DNA of 64,000 bases, taken from NCBI RefSeq assembly GCF_035084215.1, contig NW_027139666.1, positions 2,976,001 to 3,040,000 of the forward strand, read 5' to 3'. The DNA comes from Heptranchias perlo. Taxonomy: Eukaryota. The position numbers and the translations under genes were made by a program. Below the pieces are notes generated by a model, which had not been told where the DNA came from, searched no databases, and saw only the letters and a list, made by a program, of their open reading frames with translations. This document shows positions 1 through 56,638 of the stretch, piece after piece (within the stretch, counting starts at the first letter, position 1; every line of letters begins with the position of its first letter).

Positions 1-63
1 CCTGACAGGGTGTGGGACTTTATCCAATCACAGGCCAGGGGCGGATTCCCTTGGACCATTTAA

Positions 64-543
<480 letters not shown>

Positions 544-576
544 ACCCGACCCGGCTTCAGCACCAAGTGCAACAAA

Positions 577-618
577 GGCTCTTTTCAGAGCCACCAAATC
601 GGCGATGGAAAGAGCTGT
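577..618 (+). promoter_or_regulatory. Histone 3' stem-loop and histone downstream element (HDE) of H3
   Basis: GGCTCTTTTCAGAGCC at 577-592, AAAGAGCTGT at 609-618. Confidence 0.95.
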
Positions 619-1841: not shown

Positions 1842-1857
1842 GGCTCTGAAAAGAGCC
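1842..1857 (-). promoter_or_regulatory. Histone 3' stem-loop of the H2A pseudogene
   Basis: GGCTCTTTTCAGAGCC on minus strand, followed by GAAAGGGCTG. Confidence 0.93.
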
Positions 1858-1887
1858 TTTGTGTTATCAGATTAATTCTTGGTCGCT

Positions 1888-2295
<408 letters not shown>

Positions 2296-3148: not shown

Positions 3149-3164
3149 GGCTCTTAAAAGAGCC
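3149..3164 (-). promoter_or_regulatory. Histone 3' stem-loop of H2B
   Basis: GGCTCTTTTAAGAGCC on minus strand. Confidence 0.93.
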
Positions 3165-3195
3165 GTTGTTTTTTTTTTCAGTACATTGTGGAGTT

Positions 3196-3570
3196 TTACT
3201 TGGAGCTGGTGTACTTGGTCACCGCCTTTGTCCCTTCCGACACAGCGTGCTTGGCCAGTTCCCCGGGCAGCAGCAGGCGCACGGCGGTCTGGATCTCCCG
3301 GGAGCTGATGGTCGCCCGCTTGTTGTAATGGGCCAGGCGGGAAGCCTCACCCGCGATGCGCTCGAAAATATCGTTCACAAAGGAGTTCATGATGCTCATG
3401 GCCTTGGAGGAGATGCCGGTGTCGGGGTGAACCTGCTTCATCACTTTGTAGACGTAGATGGAGTAACTCTCCTTCCTCGACTTTCTCCGCTTCTTGCCGC
3501 CCTTGGCTGGTGCTTTGCTCAAGGTTTTCTTGGCGCCCTTCTTGGGAGCTGCTTTCTTGTCCTCAGGCAT
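3196..3570 (-). CDS. H2B: Histone H2B, 124 aa
   Basis: [12 protein letters not shown]...[23 protein letters not shown]...KYTSSK; stem-loop downstream. Confidence 0.97.
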
Positions 3571-4029
3571 TTTCAAACTCAATTTCAGAAACAGAAATGA
3601 CCCAAATCCGCTCCAAGTTCGGCTTAAATAGGCAGCCCCACAGCCCTATGGTAATGAGGGATGGGGAAGGCAATGATCATGATTGGGTCACTGGGAATGA
3701 TGTAACAATAATTATTCACTGTAACTCTCTGATTGGATACCTGAAGAAACCAATCGGATTTCATACCTGCCACCAATCACACTGCACATTGTCCGGTTTC
3801 AGCAATTTGTTCCGAACTGTTGCAATTCTGCGTTCGGCCAGTAGATGTCCCCAAACCCCGGGACATTGAAGTTTGCAGATGAGAGAGGGACAGAATATGA
3901 ACTCATTCTTCACATTATATTGCACGAGTGAGATTTGGAAAAACTTGGAATGGAGATGAGATGCAAGCACATTTTTTTTAGACCATACGTTAGTTGTAAT
4001 GCTGTGTTAAATTATTGTAATTGATTTCG

Positions 4030-4205
4030 GGACTATAGTCAATACTGAGGAAGACTGCGACAAAATCAGCTTGCAGAACGGTCGTGTCAATGTGCATTGA
4101 ATTTAAATATAGAAAGTTGTGATCTGATTAATTTTGTTAGGGGGAATAAGGAGGCCACATACTGCTTGGGAAATACGAGACTAAATGGGGTAGAGGAGCA
4201 ATGTA
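4030..4205 (+). mobile_element. Old CR1 LINE fragment (paralogs near 31720-31870, 42575-42880, 47715-47885, 62670-62975)
   Basis: Degenerate match to the CR1 ORF2 segment FN..KCEV.HFG...Y.L....L..VEEQ. Confidence 0.65.
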
Positions 4206-4479
4206 AATCGTGTCCTGAGAAATCAGAGAGAAATACTGTGCAACGTAAGTGCAAAAATAAGGGGGTAAATTCACAACTATCGAATGAGTAAAACAAAAAC
4301 TTTATTATGAATTAATTGTCTTCATTTTCCAATAAGAAAACGTGCAAAAATATGAGAGTAGAAATTGCAGACTGAAACTTTTTTTCACATTGCACATTGT
4401 CCTGTCACTGTCACCACGACAGATAATGTGAATTTGTTCCGCTCTTTTACAGTTCTCGCCTACGTCCAGTAGAGGCCAG

Positions 4480-7465
4480 TCTCTAGTACTCTGTATGAGA
4501 GCGGGATTTAATCTGTATCTGTCAATCTCTGATACTCTGTGAGTGTGGGATTCATTCTGCATCTGTCATTCTCTGGTACTGTGTGTGAGTGTGAGATTCA
4601 TTTTGTATCTGTCAGTCTCTGTGAGTGTGAGATTCTTTTTGTATCTGTCAGTCTCTGGTCCTGAGTGTGGGTGTGGGATTCATTCTGTATCTCTCAGTCT
4701 CTGTCACTACATATGAGCTTGGGATCATTCTGTATCTGCCAGTCTCTGGCACTGTATTTGAGAGTGGGATTAATTCTGTATCTGCCAGTCTCAGGTACTG
4801 TGTGTAAGTGTGGAATTAACTCTGTAACTGTCAGTCTCTGGTCCTGTCTGTGAGTGTGGGATTCATTCTGTATCTGCCATTATATGCTAATTTATCTCAG
4901 TGTGGCATTCATTCTGTAATTCAATCCCTGAGTCAAAGTGCAAATCTGGATTCATTCTGTATTCTTATTTCAGTTCCCACTATTTTACTTCAAACTGCAG
5001 CCTTAATAATTTAAAGTATAAGCAGTTTTTCGTCAAGTATTTAATTTGTAACCATGGATATATTTTTCGATTTTCTTCAATCAAACAACGTGTGTGAGTT
5101 TTGGACTTTTGTTACATCTTAATCTCTGAACGATATTGTGAATGATAATGTACCTTTTAATATGTTCATTGTGAAATTATTGGACTGGTGTGTAATATGT
5201 AGCTCAGATCTGCAATAATGTCTGTGTGTGAGTGTGGGATTCATTGTGTTCCTGTCAGTTTCTGGTACTGTGTATGAGTGTGGGATTTATTCTGTATCTG
5301 TCAGTTTCTGGTACTGTGTGTGAGTGTTGGATTCATTCTGCATCTGTCAGTCTCTGGTACTGTGTATGAGTGTGGAATTCATTCTGCATCTGTCAGTCTC
5401 TGGTACTGTGTGTGAGTGTGGGATTAATTCTGTATCTGTCAGTCTCTGTTACTGTACGTGGGTGTGGGATTCATTCTGTATCTGTATGTGGGTGTGGGAT
5501 TCATTCTGTATCTATCAGTCTCTGGTACTGTGTGTGAGTGTGGGAATCACCCTGTATCTGTCAGTCTCTGGTACTGTGTGTGAGTGTGGGAATCACCCTG
5601 TATCTGTCAGTCTCTGGTACTGTGTGTGAGTGTGGGAATCATCCTGTATCTGTCAGTCTCTGGTACTGTGTATGAGTGTGGGAATCATCCTGTATCTGTC
5701 AGTCTCTGGTAATGTGTATGAGTGTGGGATTCATTCTGTATCTGTCAGTCTCTGGTAATGTACGTGGGATTGGGATTCATTCTGTATCTATCAGTCTCTG
5801 TTACTGTACGTGGGTGTGGGATTCATTCTGTATCTGTATGTGGGTGTGGGATTCATTCTGTATCTATCAGTCTCTGGTATTGTGTGCGAATGAGGGTTTC
5901 ATTCTGTTCCCGTCAGTCTCAGCTGCTATATGTGAGGGAGTCATTCATTCTGCATCCATCAATTTCTGGTACTGTATGTGAGTGATATAAATTTTGTCTC
6001 TTTCAGTCTGTGCTACAGTGTGTGAGTGCAGGAATCATTCGGTATCTGTCATTCACTGTTAGGTTGTGTGAGTGCTGATTTCACTCTGTGTGTCAGTCTC
6101 TGGCCCTCCATCTGAGTGTGAGATTCATTCTTTATCTATATGTAATTTGTATCTTCGTTTACAGTATGTTGTTCAAAACTCTATTTGTAATACCTCAATG
6201 TATCAATATTTTTCCCAGTGTTTCAATGGTTGATAATGATACATTTTAAAATGTAATGTTGTTGGTTATAATCAGAGAATGTGGACCTTTTTGGACTTCT
6301 ATTAAATCTGTATTGTGAATTAGTTTATCTTCCAAAATGATATGGTGACTTTTTTGACCTTGTATATAATGTGTAGGTCAGTCTGCATGAAAGGAATACT
6401 GTGTATTTCAGTCTGAATTGGTATCAGTTTTTTGTAGTGGTTTATAATGTGTAGATCAGTCTGCACTAATGGAATTGATACTGTATCTTTCAATCTGACA
6501 CTATGAGATTTTTGGACTGATATGTAATGTGTAACTCAGACTGCATAAATGTGTGTGACTGTGAGATTCATTCCGTATCTGTCAGTCCCCAGTACTGTGT
6601 GTGAGTGTGGGATTCATTCTGTATCTGTCAGTCCCTAGTACTGTCTGTGAGTATGAGATTCATTCTGTATCTGTCAGGCTCTGGTATTGTGGGAGTGTGT
6701 GATTCATTCTATATTTGTTAGTCCCTTGTACTGTGTGTGAATGTAGGATTCATTCGGTATTTGTCAGTCACTGTTATATTGTGTGAGTGCTGGTTTCATT
6801 CTGTGTGTCAGTCTCTGGCCCTCTATCTGAATATGTGATTCATTCTTTATCTGTATGTAATTAGTCTCTCCGTTTTCAGTATGGTGTTCAAAACTGTATC
6901 TTTAATACCTCAATTTGTGCATATTTTCCCCAGTGTTTAATTGGTTGATAATGAAATGCTGTAGAATATAATCAGAGAATGTGGGCACTTTTCGGACTAC
7001 TATTAAATCTGTATCGATGTGAACACAATTGTGCATTAGTTTATCTTCCAAACTGATATGTTGACATTTTTGAACTTATATATGACGTGCAGCTCAGTCT
7101 GCATCAATGGAATACTGTATATTTCAGAGTGAATTTGCATCAGTTTTTTGTAGTGGTTTATAACGTGCAGATCAGTCTGCAATAATGTAATTGATACTGT
7201 ATCTTTCAATCTGATACTTCTTTAACTGGTAAGTAATGTTACTCAGCCTGCACTAATGTGTGATTCATTTTGTATCTCTCAGTCTCTGGAACAGTGTGTC
7301 AGTGTGGGATTCATTCTGTATCTGTCATCTCTGGTACCATATGTGAGTGTAGGATTCACTCTGTGTCTGTCAGTCTCTAGTATTGTATGTGAGTTTGGGA
7401 TTCCTTCTGCATCTGTCAGTCTCTGGTACTGTACCTGAGTGTGAGATTCATTCTGTATCTGTATG
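4480..7465 (+). repeat. Satellite array, 46-bp unit GTGAGTGTGGGATTCATTCTGTATCTGTCAGTCTCTGGTACTGTGT, with AT-rich interruptions
   Basis: 46-bp period measured at 5542/5588/5634. Confidence 0.92.
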
Positions 7466-8161
7466 TAATTATTCTCTAAGATTGCATTATGGCGTTCAAA
7501 ATTGTACCTTTAATATCTTCATGTTTAGATCTTATTTCTCATTAACTGGTATATATGGGTCCTCTGTAGGATTTGACGCTGTAGGTTTTAATCACATAAT
7601 TTGTCTGCTTTTTGAGCTACTATTAAATCTGTATCTCTGTGAGTACTGTTGTGAATGATAATGTATCTTTCAAATTGATTTCGTGACACTTTTCAAATGG
7701 TGTATAATGTGTAGCTCAGTCTGTACTAATAGAATTGATACTGTATCTATAAATCTCATACTATGAGTGTATTATAAACTGATATCTAATTTGTTTCTCA
7801 GGTTACACTCTCACAGCATTTCTCAATCTGATACTGTACATGAGTTTTGGACACGTATGCAATTTGTATCACATGATACATGCAATATCCATTCGAACAG
7901 TGTATTAAACTCACGTGAGTGTGTGAGTTCTGGGCAATTATTCAATTGGAATCTCAGGGTAAATTATTGGGTTTCATTCTGTCCCTTTCAATCGAGTACC
8001 ATGTGTGATTTCGATCTGGTATTTAATTCGTAGCTTATGTTGCCCTATTGTGAGATTGACACAGTGCCTTTCAATCTGATAGTGTGATATTGGACTGGGA
8101 TTTCTGTATCTACCTGTCAGCGGGACTCAGCTCGGGGGAAATGGAACAGCGTCTGCCTCAC

Positions 8162-9330
8162 CTGCTTTGTTTGAATGTTGGATTGAAAATGGAACTTGGG
8201 ATCAGTGTGGGATTGACTGCTTCTACTGTCTGAGACTGTGGAACTGATGACCTGTCTGTGCCTCTGTGTCTCTGTGCGCTGTGTGTGATAATGTACTTAC
8301 TGTGTGGGAGAAGGAGTTGGCTGCACTGTTCCTTGTGCCTCGAGTGGAGGAAACATAACACTGATTCTGGGTCCATCAAGGATTTGCCTGCAGGAAGAAA
8401 TTTATCTCTTGTAACTCAAGAACCAGTGAGGTAGAAAATATAAAAGTGTTCGAATTAATATCTTTGTTAATGATTATTTTGATTATCCACAAAACCAGCA
8501 ATACAAACAGTGTCAGTATCTGACTCCACTGCAGTACTGCAGCACTCAGCTTCTGCACACCACGTGTGGTGGGCTGTTTTACAACAATTTAGTGAGATCC
8601 AGACACAACACAACTGATCGATAAATGGGACTACGCGATGGGGCAGGGTCCTTTGTGCAGGTCAGGTTTCTAATCCCCTCTCCCATGGGACTAACCGTTC
8701 AACCGAAACAAAACGACCGCGGTTTAAAATGTGTCCTTCACACTTCTCACCTGGTGCCTTCAATAGATGCTCTTTGTTTAACTCCCCACATCCTTACTGT
8801 CCTGCTCTGTTCCACTCTTCACTTTACAATAACAATTAACAGGGTGAGACTGGACCTAAACCAGGAACATTACCTACTGGTCTGGGGAGAGAAAGCAGCA
8901 ATGATTTTAAAGAGCAGGTTCTTCCCATTCTGTCTCCCTTCCCCTGGACACACCCTGTACACACATAGCCCGAGAATGACCTCTCCCTTCCCCCTCTCAC
9001 TCCATGTTCCGGGACCAGTTCCTGATCCACTCCGCCTCTTACAAACAGCCCACGGACTCCCCCTGCCCTTCACCCGGACTCAATGCCGATCTCTGAGCCC
9101 ATCTGCGGACACGGTCCCGAAGCGATGAGCTGCTGTAACGAGGCTGCTCTTTGCTCCCTTCCCCCGGGGGCCGTGATCTCTCCATTCCCGGCTGTTTTAA
9201 ACAATCTTCTTCCGCTCACTGAGGGAATGGCGCCCACAGGCCGAGCTGGGGGAGGGGAGCGCGCATGCGCTCTTCTGCTCACCAACAACCAGCGCTGGGG
9301 GCGGGGTTGAGTCACGCATGCGCGGATATC
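8162..9330 (-). other. Copy 1 of the multi-copy three-exon spliced unit with NRF1/GC-box promoter (more degenerate)
   Basis: (G/A)CGCATGCGC x2 and GGGGCGGGG at 9260-9325; candidate exons ~8751-8821 and 8162-8387 with AG/GT ends. Confidence 0.55.
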
Positions 9331-12305: not shown

Positions 12306-12869
12306 GTTCCAGTCTCACTATTTCTCTTCTTATTGGACACTGAAGAGTGGAAACCGACCCGAATCGTAAAGATGTTGGAAGTTATACAAATATCATTTAT
12401 TGCAGGCATCAGGTGAGAAATAGGGAGTGTTTTCTTAAGGGTGAGAAACTGGGGACTGTGGAGGAGCAGAGGGGTTTGGGTGTCCAGGTACACCAATCAA
12501 TAAAATTAAGTGCACAAGTGTAAAAAATGAATGAAATATCCCAATTTCTAGGCTGTCATATCCCAAGGTAGCGCTATCAGGTACTTAGCCAACTCTGTGG
12601 AATTTGCTGATACAATCAGGCCCCATTGCCTCCCTTGCTGGTCCATTCCATACATCCAGCGCACTCTGCATTAAAAAATATAGATTCAAGCATTCTGCTC
12701 ATCCTGTGCCCCAGGTAGAGAAGACTGAGAGAGGCAGGAGGACCCAGACCATTAGCCTTATGTGACTTTGGACATTTCTGTTTTTAATTCAGATTATTGA
12801 ATTTGCAATTTATCCACTTTTTTGTACATTTCTATTTTTATTTTTTGAACAAATTCTCCAAACCCTGTG

Positions 12870-13270
12870 CGCAGTGAGTGCTGACTCCGGGCCCTTTGAT
12901 TGACAGCCCTCACCTCCGCCCGCCTTCGTCCTGGGCCGACTCCTCCTATCACGTGACACGCGGCACCGTCTCTCACCTTTGCGCGCTGACATCGCGATGA
13001 GCACATGCATCTCCGGCCCGAGGGGCGCCGCGCATGCGCCGCACGGTCCCTATGCCGCGTTCCTTCAGCAAAAGGCGCGTCCCGGGAGGATGATGATGGC
13101 GGCCTCGGGTCGGCGGTCGGATGGCCGCTGCTGTGGGCGGGCTCGAGACCGACAGAGGGAGGGTCGGCATTTGGAAGTGGCCTGGGCCCCGGGGTCTTGG
13201 AATGGCGCCGTGAGGCCGGCCCGGGCAACAGCTCCTCCGACTTCAGGCCCGATCGGCGTTAATGGGGTCG
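12870..13270. promoter_or_regulatory. CpG-island-like promoter with no downstream gene body identified
   Basis: CpG-rich; TCACGTGA E-box at 12950, CGCGCATGCGC NRF1 at ~13029, GATGGCGGC YY1-like at ~13095; minus-strand donor AAG|GTGAGA at ~12978. Confidence 0.6.
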
Positions 13271-13271
13271 C

Positions 13272-13800
13272 AACCCCCGGGACGGAGGGACCGAGACCCC
13301 GGGACGGTGGGACCGAGACACCGTGATGGAGGGACCGAGACCCCGGGATGGAGGGACCGAGACCCTGGAACGGTGGGACTGAGACCCCGGAACGATGGGA
13401 CTGAGACCCCGGGACGGAGGGACCGCGACCCCGGGATGGTGGGACCGAGACCCCGGGATGGAGGGACCGAGACCCTGGAACGGTGGGACTGAGACCCGGG
13501 GATGGAGGGACCGCGACCCCGGGATGGTGGGACCGCGATCCTGGGACAGCGGGGCGTCGACCCCGGGATGGAGGAACTGCGATCCCAGAGATGGAGGGAC
13601 TGTTACCCCGCGGACGGAGGGAACGCGACCCCGGGAGGGAGGGGCCGTGAACGCGGGATGGAGGGACCGCGACCCCAGGGACGGAGGTACCGCGACCCCA
13701 GGGACGGAGGGACCGCTACCACAGGGACGGAGGGACCGCGACCCCGGGATGGTGTGACCACGAACCCGCGATGGAGGTATCGTGACCCCTGGAGGGAGGT
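13272..13800 (+). repeat. GC-rich 22-bp VNTR (GGAGGGACCGAGACCCCGGGAC)
   Basis: Direct tandem copies, degenerating towards the 3' end. Confidence 0.92.
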
Positions 13801-26699: not shown

Positions 26700-27889
26700 A
26701 TATCTGCGCATGCGCGGCTCAGCTCCGCCCCCAGCGCTGGTTGTTGCTGAACAGAAGAGCGCATGCGCGCACCCCTCCCCCAGCTCGGCCTGTGGGCGCC
26801 ATTCCCTCAGTGAGCGGAAGAAGTCGGTTCAAAACAGCCGGGAATGGAGAGATCACGGCCCCCGGGGGAAGGGAGCAAAGAGCAGCCTCGTTACAGCAGC
26901 TCATCGCTTCGGGACCGTGTCCGCAGATGGGCTCAGAGATCGGCATTGAGTCCGGGGGAAGGTCAGGGGGAGTCCGTGGGCTGTTTGTAAGAGGCGGAGT
27001 GGATCAGGAACTGGTCCCGGAACATGGAGTGAGCGGGGGAAGGGAGAGGCCATTCTCGGGCTGCGCAGGTACAGGGTGTGTCCAGGGTAAGGGAGACAGA
27101 ATGGGAAGAACCTGCGATTTAAAATCATTGCTGCTTTCTCTCCCCAAACCAGTAGTGAATGGTCCTGGTTTCGTTCCAGTCTCACCCTGTTTGTTGTTAT
27201 TGGACAGTGAAGAGTGGAAACAGAGCCGGACAGGAAGGATGTGGGGAGTTATACAAAGAGCATCTATTGCAGGCATCAGGTGAGAAGTGTGAAGGACACA
27301 TTTTAAACAACGGCTGTTTGCTTTCATTTGAACGGTAAGTCGAATGGGAGAGGGGATTAGAAACCTGACCTGTACAAAGGTCCCTGCCCCATCGGGTTGT
27401 CCCATTCATGGATCAGTCCAGGGGTTGGGTTGTGTCTGGATGTCACTAAATTGTTGTAAAATTGCCCAACACACCTGGTGTGCAGAAGCTGAGTGCTGCA
27501 GTACTGCAGTGGAGTCAGACACTGACACTGTTTGTATCACTGGTTTTCATTTGTGGATATTCAAAATAATCGTTGACATGGGTATTAATTCGAACACTAT
27601 TGTATTTTCTGCCTCACTGGTTCTTGAGTTACTTGAGATAAATTTCTTCCGACAGGCAAATCCTTGAAGGACCCAGAATCAGTGTTATGTTTCCTCCACT
27701 CGAGGCACAAGGAACAGTGCAGCCAACTCCTTCTCCCACACAGTAAGTACATTATCACACACAGCGCACAGAGACACAGAGGCACAGACAGGTCATCAGT
27801 TCCACAGTTTCAGACAGTCGAAGCACTCAGTCCCACACTGATCCCAAGTTCCACCGGCACTTTTTCAATCCAACGTTCAAACAGAGCTG
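26700..27889 (+). other. Copy 2 of the three-exon spliced unit: NRF1 promoter, exons 26844(ATG)-26961, 27208-27279, 27656-27889
   Basis: GCGCATGCG x2 and CCGCCCC upstream; AAG|GTCAGG, TTGGACAG|, CAG|GTGAGA, TTCTTCCGACAG|, CTG|GTGAGG; spliced frame open for 141 codons. Confidence 0.55.
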
Positions 27890-28589
27890 GTGAGGCAGAC
27901 GCTGTTCCATTTCCCCCGAGCTGAGTCCCGTTGACAGGCAGATACAAAAATCCCAGTCCAAGTTCACACTATCAGATTGAAAGGCACTGTGTCAATCTCA
28001 CAATAGGGCAACATTAGGTACGAATTAAATAACAGATCGAAATCACACATGGCACCCGATTGGAAGGTACATAATCTATCCCAATAATGTACCCTGAGAT
28101 TCCAATTGAATACGAGTCCAGAACTCACACACACATGTGAGTTTAATACACTATTCGAATGGATATTGCATGTATCATGTGATACAAATTCCATACCAGT
28201 CCAAAACTCATGTACAGTATCAGATTGAGAAATGCTGTGACAGTGTAACCTGAGAAACAAATTAGATATCAGTTTATAATACACTCATAGTATGAGATTT
28301 ATAGATACAGTATCAATTCTATTAGTGCAGACTGAGCTACACATTATATACCATTTGAAAAGTGTCACCATATCAATTTGAAATGTACATTATCATTCAC
28401 AATTGTACTTACAGAGATACAGATTTAATAGTAGTTCAAAAAGCACACAAATTATCTGATTAAAACCTAGAGCGTCAAATCCTAAAGTGTACCCATATTT
28501 ACCAGTTAAATAATGAGAAATATGACCTAAACATGAAGATATTAAAGCTACAATTTTGAACGCAATAATGCAATCTGAGAGAATAATTA

Positions 28590-31450
28590 CATACAAATAC
28601 AGAATGAATCTCACACTCAGATACAGTACCAGAGACTGACAGATGCAGAAGGAATCCCAAACTCACATACAATACTAGAGACTGACAGACACAGAGCGAA
28701 TCCTACACTCACATATGGTACCAGAGATGACAGATACAGATTGAATCCCACACTGGCATACAGTACCAAGGACTGATAGATATCTGGTTAATTACTCACT
28801 CTCATAAAGTACTAGAGACTGACAGATAAATAATGACACCCACATTCACACAGTACCAGAGTCTGACAGATAGAGAATGAATCACACACTCACACAAAGT
28901 ACCAGAGACTGACAGATAGAGAATGCATCCCACACCAACATGCAGTCTGAGAGGCTGCATATATAGAATGAATTCAACACCCACATACAAGACTGGAGAC
29001 TGAAAGACATAGAATAAATCCAACACTCACAGTATCAGAGACTGCATATATGGAATAAATCACAAACTCACACACACTACTGACAAGATACAGAATGAAT
29101 CTCACACTCACACACTGTTCCAGAGACTGGGAGATACAAAATGAATCACACATTAGTGCAGGCTGAGTAACACATTACTTAGCAGTCCAAGAAGTATCAG
29201 ATTGAAAGATACAATATCAATTCCATTAGTGCAGACTGATCTGCACATTATAAACCACGACAAAAAACTGATGCAAATTCACTCTGAAATATACAGTATT
29301 CCATTCATGCAGACTAAGCTACACGTCATATACAAGTTCAAAAATGTCACGTTATCAGTTTGGAAGATAAACTAATGCACAATTGTGTTCACATCGATAC
29401 CGATTTAATAGTATTCTCAAAAGTGCACACATTCTCTGACTATATTCTACAGAATTTCATTATCAGCCAATTAAACACTGGGAAAAATATGCATACATTG
29501 AGGTATTGAAGATACAGATTTGAACATCATACTGTAAATGGAGATACAAATTACATAGAGATAAAGAATGAATCTCACACTCAGATAGAGGGCCAGAGAC
29601 TGACAAACTGAAGGAAAGCAGCGCTCACACAATGTAACAGTGACTGACAGATACAGAATGAATACTATATTCACACACAGTACAAGGGACTGACAGATAT
29701 ACAATGAATCACATACTTCTAAAGTACCAGAGCCTGACAGATACAGAATGAATCACACATTCACAGACAGTACTAGGGACTGACAGATACAGAATGAATC
29801 TCACAGTCACACACATTAATGCAGTCTGAGTTGCACAATACTTATCAGTCCAAAAATCTCATAGTGTCAGATTGAAAGATACATTATCAATTGCATTAGT
29901 GCAGACTGATCTACACATTATAAACCACTACAAAAAACTGATACGGATTCAGACTGAAATACACTGTGTTCCATTCATGCAGACTGAGCTCCACATGATA
30001 TAAAAGTTCAAAAATGTCACCATATCATTTTGGAAGATAAACGAATTCACAATTGTTTTCCCATCGATACAGATTTAATTGAAGTCCAAAAAGTGCCCAC
30101 ATTCTCTGATTATAAACTACAACATTACATTTTAAAATGTATCATTATCTACCAATTAAACACTGGGAAAAAATATTGATACATTGAGGTATTAAAGATA
30201 GTTTTGACCACCATAGTGTAAACGGAGATGCAAATTACATACAGATAAAGAATGAATCTCACACTCAGATAGAGGGCCAGATACTGAGATGCAGATTGAA
30301 ACCAGCACTCAAACAATGTAACATTGACTGACAGATACAGACTGAATCCTACACTCACACAATGTAACAGTGACTGACAGATACCGAATGAATCCGACAC
30401 TCACACACAGTACAAGGGACTGACAGATATTGAATGATTCCCACACTCACATTCAGTACCAGGGACTGACAGATACAGAATGAATCCCACACTCACATTC
30501 AGTACCAGGGACTGACATATACAGAATGAATCTCACACTCACATGCAATACCAGAGACTGATCGATACAGAATGAAACCCACACTCACACACAGTACCAG
30601 AGACTGACAGATACAGAATGAATCCCACACTCACATACAGATCGAGAGACTGACAGATACAGAATGAATCCCACGCCCACATACAGCACCAGAGACTGAC
30701 AGATACAAAATTAAGCTCACTCACACACAGTAACCGAAACTGACAGGAACATAATGAATCCCACACTCACAGACAGTACTCACAGACATTATTGCAGATC
30801 TGAGCTACACATTACATACCAGTCCAATAATTTCACCATGAACAGATTGAAAGTTACATTATCATTCACATATGAGTTTAGAGATTAAGATGTAATACTA
30901 CTCCAAAACCCACACACTTTGTTTGATTAAAGAAAATCGAAAAATATATCCATATTTACAAATTAAATACTTGACGAAAAACTGCATATACTTTAAAGTA
31001 TTAAAGATACAGTTTCAAGTAAAATACTGGGAACTGAAATAAGAATACAGAGTGAATCCAGATTTGCACTTTGTCTCAGGGACTGAATTACAGAATGAAT
31101 GCCACACTGAGATAAAGTAGCTGAGAATGGCAGATGCAGAATGAATCCCACACTCACAGATAGCACCAGAGACTGACAGTTACAGAGTTAATTCCACACT
31201 TATGCACAGTACCTGAGACTGGCAGATACAGAATTAATCCCTCTCTCATATACAGTGAAAGAGACTGGCAGACGCAGAACGATCCTAAACTCATATGTAG
31301 TGCCAGAGACTGAGAGATACAGAATAAATACCATGCTCATACTCAGTACCAGAGAATGACAGATGCAGAATGAATCCCACACACACAGTATCAGAGATTG
31401 ACAGATACAGATGAAATCCCGCTCTCATGCAAAGTACAAGAGACTGACCT
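28590..31450 (-). repeat. 46-bp satellite arrays, inverted copy of 4480-7465
   Basis: Reverse complement units CAGTACCAGAGACTGACAGATACAGAATGAATCCCACACTCACA. Confidence 0.9.
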
Positions 31451-32354
31451 CTACTGGACGTAGGCGAGAACTGTGAAAGTGCGGAAAACAAATTCACATC
31501 ATCTGTCGTGGTTGCAGAAACAGGACAATGTGCAATGTGAGGAAAGTTTCTGTCTGTCAATTCTCCTCTCGTAATTTTGCACGTTTCGTGATTGCAAAAT
31601 GAAGACAATTGATTCAAAATAAAGTTTTTGTTTCACTCATTCGATAGTTGTGAATTTACCCCGTTATTTTTCACTTACATTGCGCAGTATTTCTCTCTGA
31701 TTTCTCAGGACACGATTTACATTGCTCCTCTACCCCATTTAAACTCATATTTTCCAAGCAGTATGTGGCCTCCTTATTCCCCCTAACAAAATGCACCAGC
31801 TCACAACTTTCTATATTGAAATTCAATACACATTTACACGGCCGTTCTGCAAGTATATTTTTTCGAAGTATTGGCTATAATCCCAAAATCAATTACAAGA
31901 ATTTAACACAGCATTAAAACCAATGCTTGGTCTAACAAAATGTATTTGCATCTCGTCTCCATTCCCAGTTTTTCTAAATCACACTCGTGCAAGATATTGT
32001 GAAGAATGAGTTTATCTTCTGTCCCTCTCTCATCGGCAAACTTCATTGACCCGGGGTTTGGGGACATCTACTGGCCGGAAGCAGAACTGCAACAGTTCGG
32101 AACAAATTGCTGAAACCGAACAATGTGCAGTGGGAGCGAGTTTGTGATTGGTGGCAGGTTCTAAATCTGATTGGTTTCTTCAGGTATCCAATCAGAGAGT
32201 TACAGTGAATAATTATTGCGACATCACTCTCAGTGACCCAATCACAATCATTGCCTTCCCCCATCCCTCATTACCATAGGGTTGTGGGGCTGCCGATTTA
32301 ATCCGAGCTCGGAGCGGATTTGGGTCATTTCTGGGTCTGAAATTGAGTTTGAAA

Positions 32355-32729
32355 ATGCCTGAGGACAAGAAAGCAGCTCCCAAGAAGGGCGCCAAGAAAA
32401 CCTTGAGTAAAGCACCAGCCAAGGGCGGCAAGAAGCGGAGAAAGTCGAGGAAGGAGAGTTACTCCATCTATATCTACAAAGTGATGAAGCAGGTTCACCC
32501 CGACACCGGCATCTCCTCCAAGGCCATGGGCATCATGAACTCCTTTGTGAACGATATTTTCGAGCGCATCGCGGGTGAGGCTTCCCGCCTGGCCCATTAC
32601 AACAAGCGGGCGACCATCAGCTCCCGGGAGATCCAGACCGCCGTGCGCCTGCTGCTGCCCGGGGAACTGGCCAAGCACGCTGTGTCGGAAGGGACAAAGG
32701 CGGTGACCAAGTACACCAGCTCCAAGTAA
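32355..32729 (+). CDS. H2B: Histone H2B, 124 aa
   Basis: Complete ORF; stem-loop GGCTCTTTTAAGAGCC at 32762-32777 and GAAAGAGCTG downstream. Confidence 0.97.
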
Positions 32730-33529
32730 AACTCCACAATGTACTGAAAAAAAACCACAACGGCTCTTTTAAGAGCCACCCACAACCTCTCTGAAAGAGC
32801 TGCATTTCCTATATAATTGCTTAGTATCTTTTAATACCGCGATATTATTCCAATCCAAAACTGATACTGTAACTGCACCGTTGAAATTTCTGACCCATAA
32901 ACTGAACGCGAGTTTCTGATCCGCTCCTTCCCATTCGTTTTGTTCTTAAAGCGTTACTATTCCAGCCACGAACACACCCTGAATGACCCCGGGAGCAATT
33001 CCATTATCTCTATGAATTCAATCTCAGAAATGTTTAATGTCTGAGGTGAAAATCCCCATATTAAAAGCAAACGCACCCCTTGCAGAAACACAGCGGAATA
33101 GGGGCAGAATGAGAATTCCGTCCGGGTCCCTCGTTTCATAGAAGCACTCCCGGCTCTGTGAGAAAGGAACAAACTATAACGTGTCACTTTCAGAAAGACT
33201 GAATTGAAACGTGTCACTTCACGGAATGCTGTGAATGGGGCTTTAGTCCCGTCCGGTACAGTTTGTAAGCGATAATAGAATGAGCCATAAATTAAAGCAG
33301 ATTTTAAAACAGCGCCAGCGATTGGTGACGGGTAGCGCTGAATAAGACAAGATAAAAAGAACGGGTTTAAAATCTTGTGCTCAGGGCGACATTGATCTAA
33401 ATCCGGTCCTTTACGACACTGGCGGGTTTTTTGAAATTCATAAAATTCCTGATCTGTCCGTTGAGGCCGTTAAATCCCGCCCTCATCTAATTTCCAGCTA
33501 TCTGATTGGTTATTGAAATAGGCAAATGA

Positions 33530-34030
<501 letters not shown>

Positions 34031-35033
34031 ACCGGTCAAGATTTAATCTGGTAACCCAAAGGCTCTTTTCAGAGCCACCCACTGTATCTATGAAAGGGCT
34101 GAAGCGAGTCAGAGCTTAATTTAATAATAAATCGCTTAGTTAGAAACTAACGATATGTTGTTGAATACAAATGATCTGTTCAATACTCGCTTCTGGACAG
34201 TAGATGTCGCCAACCTCCAATAGGTTGAAATTTACAGATTGTATCGGAAATGAGGCACAAAATAATCAGTTCATTGAACTGGGAGGGTGGAATACAGAAA
34301 TAACAGGTGAGTTTGATCATCGGCAACAAGAGGCACTCTATTGTGTTGCGGCCATTATAGTAAGTGTTATTTACAGTCTCATCCTCCCAGAACACTTACT
34401 CGGTCTGACTTCCAATACCCAGATTTGTCCTCCAGAAGGTGACGGATGTGTTGATTATTGTGTCAGCGATTGCTGAATCAATGAATGAAATTTGTCTATT
34501 ATTGGCTGAGTGAGGGATTTATTCTGTCCCTGTCAGTCTGTTCCTGTGTCAGTGACGAGTACCGCAGTGAATGTGACACTAAGTTTTACACTGCTTCTGA
34601 TTCTAGCGCTGAGCGAAAACACTTAAGTTCTATTCGTGCGAGTTACAGTGAAACAGCCTCTGTCACAATAACTGGAGAGGAAAAATAGACAAACTTTATT
34701 TGATCCAAGTCTGGTTCATTAGAGATGAAAATATTTCCAACAGTGCCAAGCTGATACTATATCGGAAATGAAAACTTGCATCTCTTGTACTTTGCACGCG
34801 TGCCCGAGCCTCTCCCTGTATCGATGTCCGAGTTAGATTGACACTGGGGGTGTAGATGCCTCACGTGAAAGTGTAGGACCGGAATCAGACCATTCTGTAC
34901 CTGTTTGCCAGTAGTTTCCCTGTCCAAATGTGCCACTGGATGTGTTGATGGGTTAACAGTTATTAAACTGATCACTTACGTATTTTCTACCTCACCTGTT
35001 CTTGAGTTACATGCGATACGTTTCTTTCTACAG

Positions 35034-35258
35034 GCAAACCCTTGAACGAGCCAGAGTGAATGTGACGTTTCCTCCACCCGAGGCAAAGGAACAGTGCAGC
35101 CAGCGCCTTCTCACACACAGTATGTCCATTATCACTCTCAGAGCACAGAGACACAGACAGCTCATCAGTTCCACAGTCTCAGACAGCAGAAGTAGTCAGT
35201 CCCACACTGATCTCAAGTTCCAGAGACACATTTTCAATCCAACAGCCAAACAGAGCAG
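35034..35258 (+). other. Isolated copy of exon 3 of the spliced unit (225 nt, open in phase 2)
   Basis: TTTCTTTCTACAG| acceptor and CAG|GTGAGG donor; 34960-36100 is an inverted paralog of ~52600-53745. Confidence 0.55.
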
Positions 35259-35919
35259 GTGAGGCAGACACTGTTCCATTTCTCCCGAACTCAGTCCCGC
35301 TGACAGGTAGATACAAAAATTCCAGTCCAAAGTCTCGTTTTCAGATTGTCAATTTCACATAATGGCAATGTTAGCCGTGAATTAAATACCAGATACCCCG
35401 AGATTCAAATTGAATACGAGCCCAGAACTCTCACACACACGTGAGTTCAATACATGCCTTATTCATTCGAATAGTGCATCATTCGGATACAAATTGCAAG
35501 TCGAAAACTCATGTACAATATCAGATTGAGAAATGCTGTGACAGTATAACCTGAGAAACACATTAGATACCAGTTTATAATATACTCATGTTAAGAGATT
35601 TAATGATACAGTATCACAGACACACAAGTCCAAAAATCTTACAAAACAAAAATTAAAGATGCAGTATCAATTCATTTCATGCAGACTGATCTGCACATTA
35701 TATACCAATTCAAAAATGTCAGTTTGAAAGATACATTATCATTCACAATATTACTCAGAGATACAGATTTAATAGTTGTCCAAAAAGCACACAAATTATC
35801 TGATTAAAACCTCCAGCATCAAATCCTAAAGTGTATCCATATTGATAAAAACTATTTAAACATTGAGATATTAAAGCTACAATATTGAACACCATAATGT
35901 AATCTGAGAGAATAAATAT

Positions 35920-38271: not shown

Positions 38272-38652
<381 letters not shown>

Positions 38653-42198: not shown

Positions 42199-42894
42199 AA
42201 GGGATGGTGGAAGGCAATGATTGTGATTGGGTCATTGGGAGTGATAAACGTCACCTTTTCCTTTCACTCTCTGATAGGTTTCTTCAGATATCCAATCAGA
42301 TTTAATACCTGCCATCAATCACAAACACGCTCACACTGCACATTGTCCGGTTTCAGCAATTTGTTCCGAACTGTTGCAGTTCTGCTTCCGGCCAGTAGAT
42401 GTCCCCAAACCCCTGACATTGAAGTTTGCAGATGAGAGAGGGACAGAAGATAAACTCATTCTTCACATTATATTGCACGAGTGGGATTCAGAGAAACTGG
42501 GAATGGAGAACATTTTGTTGGAGCAAACATTTGTTGTAATGTCGTGTGAAATGCTTGTAATTATTTAGTGGGTATAGCCTATACTGAGGAAGAATCTAAC
42601 AAAATTCAAGAAGACTTTAATAAACTTGCTGAAAGGCGGTGTAAATGGCCATTGAATTTCCATATTGAAAGGTGTGAGGTGGTGCATTTTGCTCGGTGGA
42701 ATAAGGAGGCCACACACTGCTTTGAAAACAAGAGTCTAAATGGGGTCGAAGAGCAAAGGAATTTAGGGGTACAGATTGACAAATCATTAAAGTAGCAACA
42801 CAGGTTGATAATGTCATAGAAAACAAACACAGAGGTTTATTTCTAAAGGAACAGAATTGAAAAGGAGATAAGTTTGTTGAACTGTAAATTAAAC

Positions 42895-46390: not shown

Positions 46391-46734
46391 TATATGTGAA
46401 TCAAAAATGGGTAACATCTGAATTGGTATCTAATTTGTATCTCAGGGTGCACTATTGGCATGAATACTGCACATTTAAACTCAAAATGTGTGTGAGTTGA
46501 GGGCTGGTATTTAATTTTAATCTTGGAGTACACTATTGTTATTCACTCTGTATCTATCAATCAGTACCATGTGTCAGTTCTATCTGGTATTTAATTTGTA
46601 GCTAAGGCTGAAATAACGTGAGAATTGAAACAGTGCCTTTCAATCTGAAACTGGATGTGATTTTGGACTGGGAATTATTTATTTGCCAGTCAGCGGTACT
46701 GAGTCATTGTGAAATAGAAATTCCGTCTGTCTCT

Positions 46735-47395
46735 CCTGCTCTGTTTGACTGTTGGATTGGGATCAGCGTGGTATTGACCATTTCTGCTATCTGAGAATGT
46801 GGAACTGATGACCTGTCTGTGTCTCTATGCTCTGAGTGTTAATGTACATACTGTGTGTGAGAAGGAGCTGGCTGCACTGACTGCTCCTTGTGCCTCGGGT
46901 GGAGTAAACATCACACTGATTCTGGGTCCTTCAACGAATTGACTGATGGAAAAAAAACTGTCTCTTGTAACTCAAGAACAGGTGAGGTAGAAAAAACCAA
47001 AAGTGATCAATTGAATCTCTCTGTTAATAATCATTGTAATATCCACAAAGGAAAAACAGCGATACAAACAGTGTCAGTGTCTGATTCCACTGCAGTACTG
47101 CAGCACTCAGCTTCTGCATACCAGGTGTGTTGGGCAATTTTACAATTTAGTGACATCCAGACACAACCCAACCCCTGCACTGATCCATGAATGGGTCTAC
47201 CCGATTGGGCAGGGACCTTTGTACATATCAGATTTCTAATCCCCTCTCCCATGGGACTAACCGTTCAACCGAAACAAAACAGCCGCTGTTTAAAATGTGA
47301 CCTTCACACTTCTCACCTGATGCCTGCAATAGATGCTCTTTGTATAACTCCCCATATCCTTACTGTCCGGCTCTGTTTACTGTTCAATAACAAAC
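46735..47395 (-). other. Truncated copy of exons 2-3 of the spliced unit, promoter missing
   Basis: Homologous to 8160-8835; fused at ~47420 to a copy of the H2B upstream region. Confidence 0.6.
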
Positions 47396-48117
47396 ACTAA
47401 AGGTTAATGGGCAGGTTTAAAAAAATCAGATTTAGTACCTGCCACCAATCACAAACACGCTCACACTGCACATTGTCCGGTTTCAGCAATTTGTTCCGAA
47501 CTGTTGCAGTTCTGCTTCCGGCCAGTAGATGTCCCCAAATCCCGGATCATTGAAGTTTGCAGATGAGAGAGGGACAGAAGATAAACTCATTCTTCACATT
47601 ATATTGCACGGGTGGGATTTAGAAAATACTGGGAATGGAGACGAGCTGCAAGTACATTTTTTTTGGACCAAAAACTACTTGTAATGCTGTGTTAAATTCT
47701 TGTAATCGATTTAGGGCGTATAGTCAATATTGAGGAAGACTGGGACAAAATAAACTTGCAGAACGGCCGTGTAAATGGCCATTGAATTTCAATATAGAAA
47801 GGTGTGAGGTGGTGCATTTCGCTGGGGGAATAAGGAGGCCACATACTGCATGGAAAATAAGAGTCTAAATGGGGTAGAGGTGCAATGTAAATCATCCTGA
47901 GAAATCAGCGAGAAATACTTCGCAATGTAAAGTGAAATACAATGGGGTAAATTCACAACTATCGAATGAGAGAAACAAAAACTTTATTATGAATTAATGG
48001 TCTTCATTTTTCACCGTCAAAAAGTGCAAAAATACGAGAGTAAAAGTTGCAGTCCGAAACTTCCATCACATTGCACATTATCCTGTTTCTGTAACCACGA
48101 CAGATAATGTGAATTTG

Positions 48118-49369
48118 TTTTTTGAAGGGGTAACCAAGAAGATAGATGAGGGCTGTGCAGTAGACGTGGTCTACATGGACTTCAGCAAAGCATTTGACAA
48201 GGTACCGCATGGTTGGTTGTTACATAAGGTTAAATCTCATGGGATCCAAGGTGAGGTAGCCAATTGGATACAAAATTGGATTGACGACAGAAGACAGAGG
48301 GTGGTTGTAGAGGGTTGTTTTTCAAACTGGATGCCTGTGCCCAGCGGTGTGCCTCAGGGATCGGTGTTGGGTCCGCTGTTATTTGTTATTTATATTAATG
48401 ATTTGGATGAGAATTTAGGAGGCATGGTTAGTAAGTTTGCAGATGACACCAAGATTGGTGGCATTGTGGACAGTGAAGAAGGTTATCTAGGATTGCAACG
48501 GGATCTTGATAAATTGGGCCAGTGGGCCGATGAATGGCAGATGGATTTTAATATAGATAAATGTGAGGTGATGCATTTTGGTAGATCGAATCGGGCCAGG
48601 ACCTACTCCGTTAATGGTAGGGCGTTGGGGAGAGTTATAGAACAAAGAGATCTAGGAGTACAGGTTCATAGCTCCTTGAAAGTGGAGTCACAGGTGGATA
48701 GGGTGGTGAAGAAGGCATTCAGCATGCTTGGTTTCATTGGTCAGAACATTGAATGCAGGAGTTGGGATGTCTTGTTGAAGTTGTACAGGGCATTGGTGAG
48801 GCCACACTTGGAGTACTGTGTACAGTTCTGGTCACCCTATTATAGAAAGGATATTATTAAACTAGAAAGAGTGCAGAAAAGATTTACTAGGATGCTACCG
48901 GGACTTGATGGTTTGACTTACAGGGAGAGGTTTGACAGACTGGGACTTTTTTCCCTGGAGAGTAGGAGGTTAAGGGGTGATCTTATAGAAGTCTATAAAA
49001 TAATGAGGGGCATAGATAAGGTCGATAGTCAAAATCTTTTCCCAAAGGTAGGGGAGTCTATAACGAGGGGGCACAGATTTAAGGTGAGAGGGGAGAGATA
49101 CAAAAGGGTCCAGAGTGGCAATTTTTTCAATCAAAGGGTGGTGAGTGTCTGGAACGAGCTGCCAGAGGCAGTAGTAGAGGCGGGTACAATTTTGTCTTTT
49201 AAAAAGCATTTGGACAGTTACATGGGTAAGATGGGTATGGAGGGATATGGGCCAAGTGCACGCAATTGGGACTAGCTTAGTGGTATAAACTGGGCGACAT
49301 GGACATGTTGGGCCGAAGGGCCTGTTTCCATGTTGTAACTTCAATGATTCTTCTATAATTCTATGATTC
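48118..49369 (+). mobile_element. Young 5'-truncated CR1 LINE with uninterrupted RT/C-terminal ORF2 frame (stop at 49275)
   Basis: YMDFSKAFDKV, SGVPQGSVLGPLLF, KFADDTK motifs with no stops over ~385 codons; 3' UTR and (TTCTATGA)-type tail; absent from paralogous sites. Confidence 0.95.
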
Positions 49370-53436: not shown

Positions 53437-54610
53437 CTGCTCTGTTTGACTGTTGGTTTGGAAATGTGTCTCTGGAACTTGGGATCAGTGTGGGACTGAC
53501 TACTTCTGCTGTCTGAGACTGTGGAACTGATGACCTGTCTGTGTCTCTGTGCTCTGAGATTGAGAATATACATACTGTGTGTGAGAAGGAGTTGGCTGCA
53601 CTGTTCCTTTGTCTCGGGGGGAGGAAACTTCACATTCATTCTGGATCCTTCTCGGATTTGCCTGCAGAAAGAAAATTATCGCATGTTACTCAATAACAGG
53701 TGAGGTAGAAAATACAAAAGTGATCAGTTTAATAGCTCTGTTAATAATTATTTTGTACATCGACAAATGAAAACCAGTGATACAGTGTCAGTGTCTGACT
53801 CGACTGCAGTACTGCAGCACTCAGCTTCAGCATACCAGGTGTGTTAGGCTGTTTTAGAACAATTTAGTGACATCCAGACAAAATGCAACCACTGCACTGA
53901 TCCATGAATGGGACTACCCGATGGGGCAGGGACCTTTGTGCAGGTCGGGTTTCTAATCCCCTCTCCCATGGGACTAACCGTTCAACTGAAAGCAAACAGC
54001 CGCTGTTAGAAATGTGTCCTTCACACTTCTCACCTGGTGCCTTCAATAGATGCTCTTTGTATGACTCCCCACATCCTTACTGTCCGGCTCTGGTTCCACT
54101 CTTCACTGTCCAATAACAACAAACAGGGTGAGACTGGAACTAAACCAGGACCATTCACTACTGGTTTGGGGAGAGAAAGCAGCAATGATTCTAAATAGCA
54201 GGGACTTCCCATTCTGTCTCCCTTACCCTGGACACACCCTGTACACACACAGCCCGAGAATGACCTCTCCCTTCCCCCGCTCACTCCATGTTCCGGGACC
54301 AGTTCCTGATCCACTCCTCCTCTTACAAACACACCCCGGACTCGCCGGCCCTGACCCTGGACTCAATGCCGATCTCTGAGCCCATCTGCGGACACGGTCC
54401 CGAAGCGATGATCTGCTGTAACGAGGCTGCTCTTTGCTCCCTTCCCCCGGGGGCCGTGATCTCTCCATTCCCGGCTGTTTCAAACCATCTTCTTCCGCTC
54501 ACTGAGGGAATGGCGCCCACAGGCCGAGCTGGGGGAGGGGAGCGCGCATGCGCTCTTCTGCTCACCAACAATCAGCGCTGGGGGCGGGGCTGGGTCACGC
54601 ATGCGCAGAT
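53437..54610 (-). other. Copy 3 of the three-exon spliced unit: exons 54468(ATG)-54356, 54105-54034, 53661-53437
   Basis: NRF1 x2 and GC box at 54540-54608; canonical GT/AG at all junctions; 72- and 225-nt internal exons; spliced frame open for 136 codons. Confidence 0.55.
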
Positions 54611-56638
54611 ATCTGGTTTAATTCCCAATACAAAAATCGATGGAAACTTTCCCCAATCGGAATTTTTCAGAGTCTGAGCAAATCCGAGAAGGATCCAGAA
54701 TGAATGTGAAGTTTCCTCCCCCCGAGACAAAGGAACAGTGCAGCCAACTCCTTCTCACACACAGTATGTGTATTATCACTCTCAGAAAGGTCAGAGGGAA
54801 TGGGGTCCACAGGCAGTGCAGGAACAGGCACCAGAATGGAAACAGATGGGATTCCACCAGTGCCTAACGCTGGAATCCAGACTGACTTTACAATCTCTCA
54901 CTATTAAACTCGATGTTTCCATCCCTGCTGTTTCTCTCGGTATCTTTTGATGGTAAAAGGCCTTTCATCGATAAAATGGGCGGCTGTGAAATGAGCCAAT
55001 GGGTTCTGTTCATTGTTGGCTCCCTGACTGATAAAGCAACGCGTGACTCCGAAACTGGAGGGACGATTTCTCAAACCAATCCTGGAGAAACAGCGGAGCA
55101 AAGTGGGAGTCCGTATATTGGCTTCGACCGTGTGGGATTAACATCTGACAGCAACAGTCCCAGATTATTTCAATCGGAATGAAACTCTCGGTCACTGAGA
55201 GAAATACTGAATGGGCCTGAGCTGCAAGATTACAAAGGGTGAAACATGCAAGAGAGGGTTAAATGTGTGACACTGTCCCTGAGAATGGGATTAATAATGT
55301 GTCTGTCTCTGAAATAATTTTAGTGAGAGATGAGACTGCATCTTCTGTCACTCCACCTTGGAATATCAATTGGAATGGAATATTTTTTCCAATTTGTTAC
55401 TGGGTGAATGCTGGACATTACAGGTCAGTTTCTCTCTCTCTCTTTTGCACAGCATATGAATGTGGGATACTGTTACTGAGCGTGAAACGGACATACTGAT
55501 AGGAAGTGTGAGACTGATACATTGTCTGTGTGTGTGTCTCTGTCTGTCTGTTTATCTGTCGGTCTGTCTTTCTCTCTCTCCAGCGCTGTAAATGAAAGCG
55601 AAATACTGTTACTGAGCTTAATATCGACACCCTGGTGGAAGGTAAAGACTGATTCAGTGTTTGTGAACAGACCTCCGGTGCTGTTGGTGAGATAGTCACT
55701 GTCCCTTCTATTATGTATGAGCCGGATTGACGGTGCATTTATCAGTCTCCAGTCCAGTAATGAAAGGTGGGGAGAAACAGCCTGGAACGGCCTGACACTG
55801 GACTGCCTGTTAGTGTTGAATTTATTCTGTAACGAGCCGTCTCTGGGTGTTGAGAATGGGACGGATAGGACACCAGTTACTATTGTCTGTCAGTCAGTTT
55901 AGGAGGAGAGAGAAACACAGAGAGACTGGAAGAGCCCAGAGCGGATAATTTGTATTATCGTCTTAACCAAACATATTTCTGTGTACGAACAGTATAATAT
56001 TTTAAAACCAGATGTGAATTATCACACCAACAGCTGTGATTGTCTCCTGCCACTGAATCTGGGGACCAGACACTGTGAGGAGCGCCGGCCTCAGAGTGTT
56101 TAACAGTTACTGAGCTGGGAAACTACAACTAACACCCGAGAATCTGCAGCACAGGCCGAGCGGGGAGGAAAGCCTGTCCCGGGAATTGTCAATCTGGCGA
56201 CCAGTTTGTCCTGTGAATGTGAAGATGTGAACATTGTGTCAGAGAGAGTGTGTTAAACGGGCGGGCGGGTTAGATTAATGTCACTGTGTTTGTGTGGCCG
56301 GTCACATCGCCGGATTTCCGGGTCGCTTTTAAGTAAAATTAAAAAAAATCCCTTTCAAAGGATCGCCCTCCTCCCCTGCCGAGCTCCGAAGTGAAAAATT
56401 AAGGTAAGGTTTGAGTTCAATTCAAGATTTCAGACGAAAAACGGAGATCCTGTCAGCGATCGGGTGAGAGAGCGCGATCAGTGCAGCAATGAAACGGGTT
56501 TAAATCGAAACTGGTGCTTTCAATTCCGGTGAAAGTTTTTCGACAGCAAACATTCCGGTGTTAGATATAGGAAGGGGCTAGTCTGGGACTCTGGAGTGCC
56601 CGCTTTTAATTGTAACCGGCGAGTTTAAGAGGAGAGAG

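Follow-up and report, generated by a model that had tools for sequence, protein, structure and literature searches.

A multi-copy, apparently spliced unit carried by duplication within a shark histone cluster is a candidate non-coding RNA family

Replication-dependent histone clusters are usually pictured as collections of intronless genes that are activated in S phase. Lineage-specific, multi-copy spliced lncRNAs that arise through segmental duplication, on the other side, form a known general class of transcripts. In newt lampbrush loops, the promoters from which read-through into satellite DNA begins are, we presume, those of histone genes. The available portions of two reports on these loops describe transcription of satellite by read-through from upstream gene promoters (PMC5615363; PMC12046345), and the available portion of a human study describes spliced poly(A) RNAs from HIST1H2AC, HIST1H2BC, HIST1H2BD and HIST1H2BK that carry the histone ORF and are spliced near or past the stem-loop (PMC5100578). 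A description of the unit family reported here was not found in the literature searched, most subscription papers lying outside its coverage.

The window analysed here, 64,000 nucleotides from the shark Heptranchias perlo, is a histone cluster with H1, H2A, H2B, H3 and H4 genes and 11 histone stem-loop matches (Rfam); it also contains one C2H2 zinc-finger gene, LINE fragments, and 46-bp and 82-bp satellites. An unannotated spliced unit had been proposed in three full copies, at 8162–9330 (−), 26700–27889 (+) and 53437–54610 (−), hereafter copies 1 to 3, and all three are present, as are the three partial copies, for which we find extents of 12306–12419, 34961–35560 and 46424–47386 (Table 1). 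We consider that this is a multi-copy spliced unit of shark histone clusters, likely giving rise to non-coding RNA from a Pol II promoter that is predicted to be of the housekeeping type, a reading to which we assign a probability of roughly 0.6. Among the three options offered by the original prediction, a lncRNA fits best, and a protein-coding gene and a promoter reading into H2B/H2A both fare poorly.

Table 1. Features of the unit and its surroundings, in window coordinates (exon details of copies 1 and 3 are given under the respective copy)
Feature	Coordinates	Strand	Remarks
Copy 2, predicted promoter	26700..26769	+	two GCGCATGCGC palindromes (26706, 26759) around GC box (26725); CpG-rich
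Copy 2, exon 1	26770..26961	+	start probably within ~26750-26800; ATG 26844, donor 26962; other family donors at 26956, 26957, 27029
Copy 2, exon 2	27208..27279	+	72 nt, optional cassette; alternative acceptors at 27153, 27215
Copy 2, exon 3, short form	27656..27742	+	87 nt, donor 27743
Extension originally counted in exon 3	27743..27889	+	covered by contigs; donor 27890 absent among the joints listed
Satellite block, 46-bp and 82-bp type	28240..31448	.	3' of copy 2, co-amplified with the unit
H2B (32355-32729) and H2A (33641-34030)	32355..34030	+	3' stem-loop on each; flanked by exon 3 of copy 2 and the exon-3 copy that follows
Copy 1	8162..9330	-	ATG 9185; exon 1 to 9074; exon 2 8751-8821 (71 nt, frameshifted); exon 3 8301-8387 (87 nt)
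Copy 3	53437..54610	-	ATG 54468; exon 1 to 54356; exon 2 54034-54105; exon 3 53576-53661 (86 nt)
Partial copy 3' of copy 3	46852..47379	-	exon 2 47317-47379 (63 nt), exon 3 46852-46942 (91 nt)
Extra exon-3 copy	35034..35119	+	86 nt; AG and GT intact; fused to H2A 3' flank at ~34955
Isolated exon-2 copy	12306..12419	+	AC instead of acceptor AG; LINE fragment next
Inverted exon-3 copy	54678..54786	+	109 nt, 97% to exon 3 of copy 3; upstream of the copy 3 promoter

Several neighbouring elements deserve a description of their own. Broken histone copies are present in the cluster: two H2A copies are frameshifted, at 1891–2285 (−) and 23104–23519 (+), the latter lacking a stem-loop and continuing into a LINE fragment, and the H4 at 38272–38596 (−) is disrupted right after its start codon by a 13-bp tandem duplication, which may be genuine damage or an artefact of assembly. 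At about 15857–20250 (−), the zinc-finger gene has its own CpG-rich promoter, 39-, 47- and 63-bp minisatellites in its intron, and an ORF of 244 codons with stop codons upstream. The C-terminal part of a LINE reverse transcriptase (366 open codons, 48175–49275 (+), RVT_1 E-value 4e-22) is inserted 3' of copy 3, and an old LINE fragment located upstream of H2B has been co-amplified with the H2B module (31722–31857, 4026–4201, 42564–42817, 47709–47885 and 62659–62907). A single tRNA-like sequence at 22496–22567 (−), called tRNA-Gly TCC by ARAGORN and scoring 41.5 bits in Rfam, is possibly a pseudogene or the head of a SINE.

The promoter layout proposed for the unit, two GCGCATGCGY palindromes flanking a GC box, is found in every full copy. 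The palindromes, which we take to be the NRF1 motif and hence putative sites, have 12 strand matches at seven sites of the window against 0.03 expected, and six of the seven sites lie in the three promoters, where CpG o/e is 0.68–0.74 and GC content 0.61–0.62. From its sequence, the promoter is predicted to be a Pol II promoter of the housekeeping type. A contig of run X7 (depth 388) spans 26501–26781, upstream of the copy 2 promoter, and includes the tract 26640–26699, which is highly conserved among copies; it possibly represents an upstream start or a divergent transcript. A separate CpG island at 12950–13350 (o/e 1.03), with one GCGCATGCGC at 13030 and then a GC-rich minisatellite of 22-bp units, has the appearance of a further promoter with a first exon.

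Contigs from four of nine matching public runs (X1, X5, X6 and X7, from three studies) were mapped to 26000–28300 at a threshold of 85% to copy 2, which accepts contigs from any copy of the family, so that the joints hold at the family level and are tied to no locus. The runs are presumed to be RNA, a status that was guessed automatically, and a genomic-DNA control is not part of the set; contig depth is non-additive and therefore neither ranks splice forms nor measures expression. In contigs of three of the four runs (two studies, two organism labels) the predicted exon borders are joined, and splicing at canonical borders, as is expected of a lncRNA, together with co-amplification of the unit with the histone genes, is supported at the family level for runs presumed to be RNA. 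Run X5 contributed 23 contigs and zero joints. Among the joints listed, which are 15 of 22 and are given in copy-2 numbering, are 26961^27656 (X1, 2376), 26956^27656 (X1, 540; X6, 93; X7, 450) and 27279^27656 (X1, 309; X7, 1298), accompanied by 26956^27208 (X6, 89), 26956^27153 (X7, 270), 26956^27215 (X6, 187) and 27028^27656 (X1, 485). Joints whose donor exists in copy 2 are GT..AG, and the remaining ones fit the donor of copy 3. Exon 2 is frequently skipped, exon 1 being joined directly to 27656. As for the individual junctions predicted, 27279^27656 (equivalent to 54034^53661) and a joint of the copy-3 type 54356^54105 are seen, but 26961^27208 is absent among the joints listed. With exon 1 (~190 nt) and exon 3 (87 nt) the unit exceeds the 200 nt customary for lncRNAs.

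The exon structure departs from the prediction at its 3' end. Exon 3 had been given 234 nt, ending at 27889; a donor at 27743 is also seen in use, which gives an exon of 87 nt, and no joint from 27890 is among those listed. This donor is GT in five of five copies, in which exon 3 measures 87, 87, 86, 86 and 91 nt (a range of 86–91 nt) and exon 2 measures 72, 71, 72, 63 and 72 nt. Across 27770, summed depth falls from ~25,700 to 1,800 in X1 and from 23,600 to 240 in X7, which is a weak hint at most. The exon-1 donor is non-homologous between copies, lying 118 (copy 2), 112 (copy 1) and 113 nt (copy 3) past the ATG; two phases are represented among the donors, and a further one, 185 nt from the ATG, comes after an in-frame stop. 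A comparison of splice dinucleotides across copies showed no measurable excess of conservation over the flanks, where 53–61% of dinucleotides are invariant too, and with five copies such a check is powerless. In X5, sequence resembling exon 2 lies at 27185–27286 between different flanks on either side, which suggests that exon 2 derives from an older dispersed element.

The spliced frames of 141 and 136 codons proposed for copies 2 and 3 are free of stops as claimed, but their reading as proteins is unsupported, the frames being scrambled by splice forms and indels. These long forms had been chosen among several possible splice forms, and they stay open in 93/3000 and 63/3000 dinucleotide shuffles. 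The same exon chain in copy 1 meets a stop after 51 codons, and the long frame of copy 2 relies on two bases that make stop codons in most other copies. At 27686, T>G creates a stop in the copy 2 frame and accounts for a depth of 13604/15040 in X1 (90%), 1253/1253 in X6 and 8871/8871 in X7; one X1 contig has a 1-nt deletion at 26859 that shifts the exon-1 frame. Speaking for a coding role, exons 2 (72 nt) and 3 (87 nt) of copy 2 are multiples of three, and one frame of exon 3 is free of stops in five of five copies. With 19–23 changes per exon, pN/pS in the stop-free frame of the majority sequence reaches 1.01 in exon 2 and 1.55 in exon 3, compared to 0.14 for H2B; in the frame of copy 2 the values are 1.44 and 0.70. 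Frame 0 of exon 2 (pN/pS 0.38) was considered as coding and dropped, as it opens with a stop and has two further stop variants. Exons 2 and 3 therefore present no conserved frame or coding selection, as far as the few changes per exon allow, which is what is expected of a lncRNA.

Searches for homologues were equally negative within their scope. The exon-1 peptide has no homologue among proteins of 71–2000 aa or among 1.84 billion representatives, the exon-3 frame of copy 3 has none among proteins of 40–130 aa, and the exon-3 alignment has none among proteins of 85–2000 aa; blanks in such word-index searches are weak evidence taken alone. The searched collection includes the H1 and one H2B of the window, with RefSeq entries of Heptranchias perlo as cluster mates, so that a RefSeq model containing the exon-1 peptide should have matched. 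No Pfam family was found on seven frames of the unit (exon 2 alone was covered by the Pfam search only), the best ESM Atlas score was 0.76, which is the chance level and gives no usable match, and a metagenome scan with the exon-1 motif returned zero matches. A protein family would be expected to keep a single frame over copies and splice forms, and to have homologues or known domains, and neither is seen. Scrambled frames, pN/pS near 1, a stop allele in most of the depth and the lack of homologues in these searches thus leave the protein-coding option unsupported. A structured RNA is not indicated either: folding z-scores over seven sequences range from −1.0 to +0.9, with no stable fold, 0 of 16 pairs are compensatory in the five exon-3 copies, and Rfam matches only histone stem-loops and one tRNA-like sequence, with no snoRNA or miRNA, a search that undescribed families would escape.

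The one part of the unit that is conspicuously conserved is the start of exon 1. Over the 112 nt from ATG to donor, 2/112 columns vary among the three copies, compared to 94/604 intron columns (p = 8e-6, for a region picked after looking), and copies 1 and 2 are identical across 26831–26956; these two copies have 1/199 differences in the ATG–donor stretch plus short exon 3, against 59/595 in the introns. Exon 1 joined to short exon 3 is open in three of three copies, with the same end phase (205, 199 and 199 nt). Such a pattern could be expected if the 37 codons that follow the strong-context ATG (Arg/Ser-rich, basic) were the product, a microprotein, or a regulatory short ORF, the later exons being variable tails. 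We give this a small but genuine chance, as several observations weigh against it. The conservation of exon 3 is lost when copy 3 joins the comparison (12/86 variable), and at the codon level the short ORF of exon 1, despite its high nucleotide conservation, has two changes, one silent and one replacement, so that silent sites are conserved as much as replacement sites. The non-exonic tract 26640–26699 upstream is nearly as conserved (2/60), and another identical tract extends 66 nt past the exon-3 donor, as expected of gene conversion. An open frame of such length occurs in 30–56% of shuffles, one contig is frameshifted, a replacement change at 26880 makes up all the depth in X6 and X7, and the exon-1 peptide is without a match in the protein searches. 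Gene conversion or promoter-proximal constraint can explain the conservation of the exon-1 start.

The duplicated block consists of the upstream flank, the unit, the satellite, H2B and H2A. Around the unit, copies 1 and 2 match over 2.7 kb (87%), and their H2B–H2A regions match over 3.6 kb (88%); the partial copies start at sharp junctions, the one at 35 kb being fused to the 3' flank of H2A and the one at 47 kb following a truncated H2B upstream region, with the break (of the partial copy 46852–47379) immediately before an H2B promoter fragment. The copies have spread by segmental duplication and not by transposition, as seen from the shared blocks, the differing break points and the absence of terminal repeats. 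The inverted copy at 54678–54786 replaces ~16 nt upstream of the copy 3 promoter and begins exactly at the acceptor; the 5–6 nt of microhomology at both of its junctions suggest template switching and not a cDNA insert.

That the unit instead belongs to a transposable element, with joints that stem from processed copies present in DNA, is highly improbable. The isolated exon-2 copy does adjoin a LINE fragment, a loose alignment links exon 2 to the corresponding part of LINE reverse transcriptase (12/2000 shuffles), and the run set comes without a genomic-DNA control. However, no long terminal, inverted or target-site repeats surround copies 2 and 3, the frames of the unit contain no coding domain (transposase or reverse transcriptase), the ends of the copies vary and sit in unrelated flanks, and introns are retained in all copies of the window. 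A LINE profile built from four copies ends at 12424, leaving exon 2 outside; when exon 2 was considered as a decayed remnant of a LINE, it passed one of eight anchored tests, with the two best local matches elsewhere in LINEs. For exons 1 and 3 no clear repeat origin was found, the comparison of exon 3 with the 46-bp satellite scoring 29 against a shuffle maximum of 28.

What lies downstream of exon 3 can be glimpsed from contigs that leave the simple exon order. A joint in X1 runs from 27742 back to 27657 (86 backwards, with one other letter), joining the end of one exon 3 to the start of another, and a loose end in X1 before 27654 likewise places an exon-3 end ahead of an exon-3 start. Copy 2 and copy 3 are each followed downstream by an extra exon-3 copy with intact AG and GT (at 35034 and 46942, respectively), and the window thus offers a linear explanation for these joints; alternatively, the exon-3 repeats may come from a small circular RNA. 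If exon 3 of copy 2 were joined to the copy at 35034, H2B and H2A would be contained in a 7.3-kb intron. In two X7 contigs the end of exon 2 continues into letters resembling the H2A 3' flank at 60354–60374, antisense to H2A (two mismatches in 21; 0/100 shuffles matching); this flank is preceded in the window by GG, not AG, so that the acceptor would be that of another copy. Two of the 23 loose ends listed were traced, one to this H2A 3' flank and the other to the LINE that follows the isolated exon-2 copy (12306–12419), and none of those listed (116 more lie outside the listing) matches H2B, the mapped stretch (26000–28300) being without a histone gene.

These partners bear on whether the unit represents non-coding 5' exons that belong to a protein-coding gene now far away or lost, perhaps of the C2H2 zinc-finger type, with its coding last exon farther off or with the front end orphaned. 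The zinc-finger gene of the window is built alike, with a promoter rich in CpG, a short exon at the start, an intron filled with repeats and a single last exon that holds the coding sequence. Copy 3 has the same orientation as this gene, and the mapped joints reach no terminal exon or poly(A) site of the unit. We nevertheless hold this origin to be unlikely: exon 1 has no sequence similarity to the zinc-finger promoter, downstream, the exons are seen joined to two partners, a further exon 3 and H2A-flank sequence, and the strong ATG of exon 1 would precede any such ORF.

A different role for the promoter had been proposed, that of reading into H2B/H2A. The three full copies are indeed all co-oriented upstream of an H2B–H2A pair, but the pair is not intact in each case, as the H2A after copy 1 is frameshifted, and copy 3 is separated from its H2B by 11 kb that contain a LINE and a partial copy. 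A replication-independent H2B/H2A mRNA could be made from this upstream constitutive promoter through an acceptor (32279^32280) located 75 nt ahead of the H2B start, and a pyrimidine-rich stretch ending in AG precedes four of four H2B genes. This AG presumably sits in an octamer-like element of the H2B promoter, which would account for its conservation. All 18 splice combinations are out of frame with H2B, each containing two to six upstream ATGs; both histone genes, H2B and H2A, retain a promoter and a stem-loop of their own, and the H2B at 62218 has no unit within the 1.8 kb of window sequence upstream. The human spliced poly(A) histone mRNAs, in the available portion of their description, are spliced 3' (PMC5100578). 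The proposal is thus unsupported, and a leader function quite improbable. Three longer RefSeq H2B models were considered as possibly led by the unit and rejected: in two of them the extension follows the H2B 5' UTR or comes from an unrelated start, and the third shares five residues, GKSLK, with exon 3. As the H2B 5' UTR encodes three of the five as well, we treat this similarity as chance.

For the non-coding RNA that we favour, the following course of events may be envisaged. A constitutive Pol II promoter would start the transcript near 26750–26800. Promoter, short exons, satellite block and H2B–H2A pair have been copied jointly by segmental duplication, and partial duplications have supplied further copies of exons 2 and 3 downstream. 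The polymerase would likely continue through satellite and histone DNA, and splicing would take up whatever exon copies or cryptic exons follow, joining exon 3 to exon 3, or exon 2 to antisense sequence like the H2A 3' flank. No frame is kept beyond exon 1, and the RNA would most likely have no protein product. A role, if any, could come from transcription itself at the histone locus, or the RNA may be tolerated as a side effect of the co-amplification of a strong promoter. A bolder version, which we entertain only tentatively, is that of an RNA gene family resident in the histone clusters of some sharks, with histone genes as introns, antisense to H2A in places and with a conserved 37-codon start, that regulates the histone locus through RNA, peptide or transcription.

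A repeated spliced unit with a housekeeping-type promoter, possibly spanning histone genes, would mean that such clusters have a further layer of transcription that is independent of the cell cycle. Even as a mere by-product, it would be a clear case of a promoter and exons carried and reshuffled by the duplication of a histone cluster, and it cautions against inferring a protein from a stop-free splice form.

Compared with described systems, the unit resembles the 5' untranslated exons of the shark C2H2 zinc-finger gene (~15857–20250), where a CpG-rich promoter and a short first exon are also followed by a minisatellite-filled intron, but the two lack sequence similarity and no zinc-finger last exon is seen for the unit. 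As with the HIST1 spliced poly(A) RNAs, in the available portion of their description (PMC5100578), spliced Pol II RNAs come from a histone cluster; unlike those RNAs, the unit has its own promoter at least 5 kb upstream, and none of the joints seen enters a histone ORF, in a mapped stretch that is without a histone gene. The newt read-through, as far as described in the available portions of the reports (PMC5615363; PMC12046345), likewise involves genes within satellite DNA, and transcription of satellite is predicted here; in contrast to the newt case, a separate promoter with spliced exons of its own is present, and nothing links it to oocytes. In overall organization the unit corresponds to lineage-specific duplicated lncRNAs, with which it shares a promoter in a CpG island, exons that are short and variable, a multitude of splice forms, the lack of a kept frame and copies duplicated as blocks. 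It differs from that class in that a module of replication-dependent histone genes makes up the duplicated block, so that histone genes and satellites can fall in introns, and in that exons accrue through partial tandem duplication.
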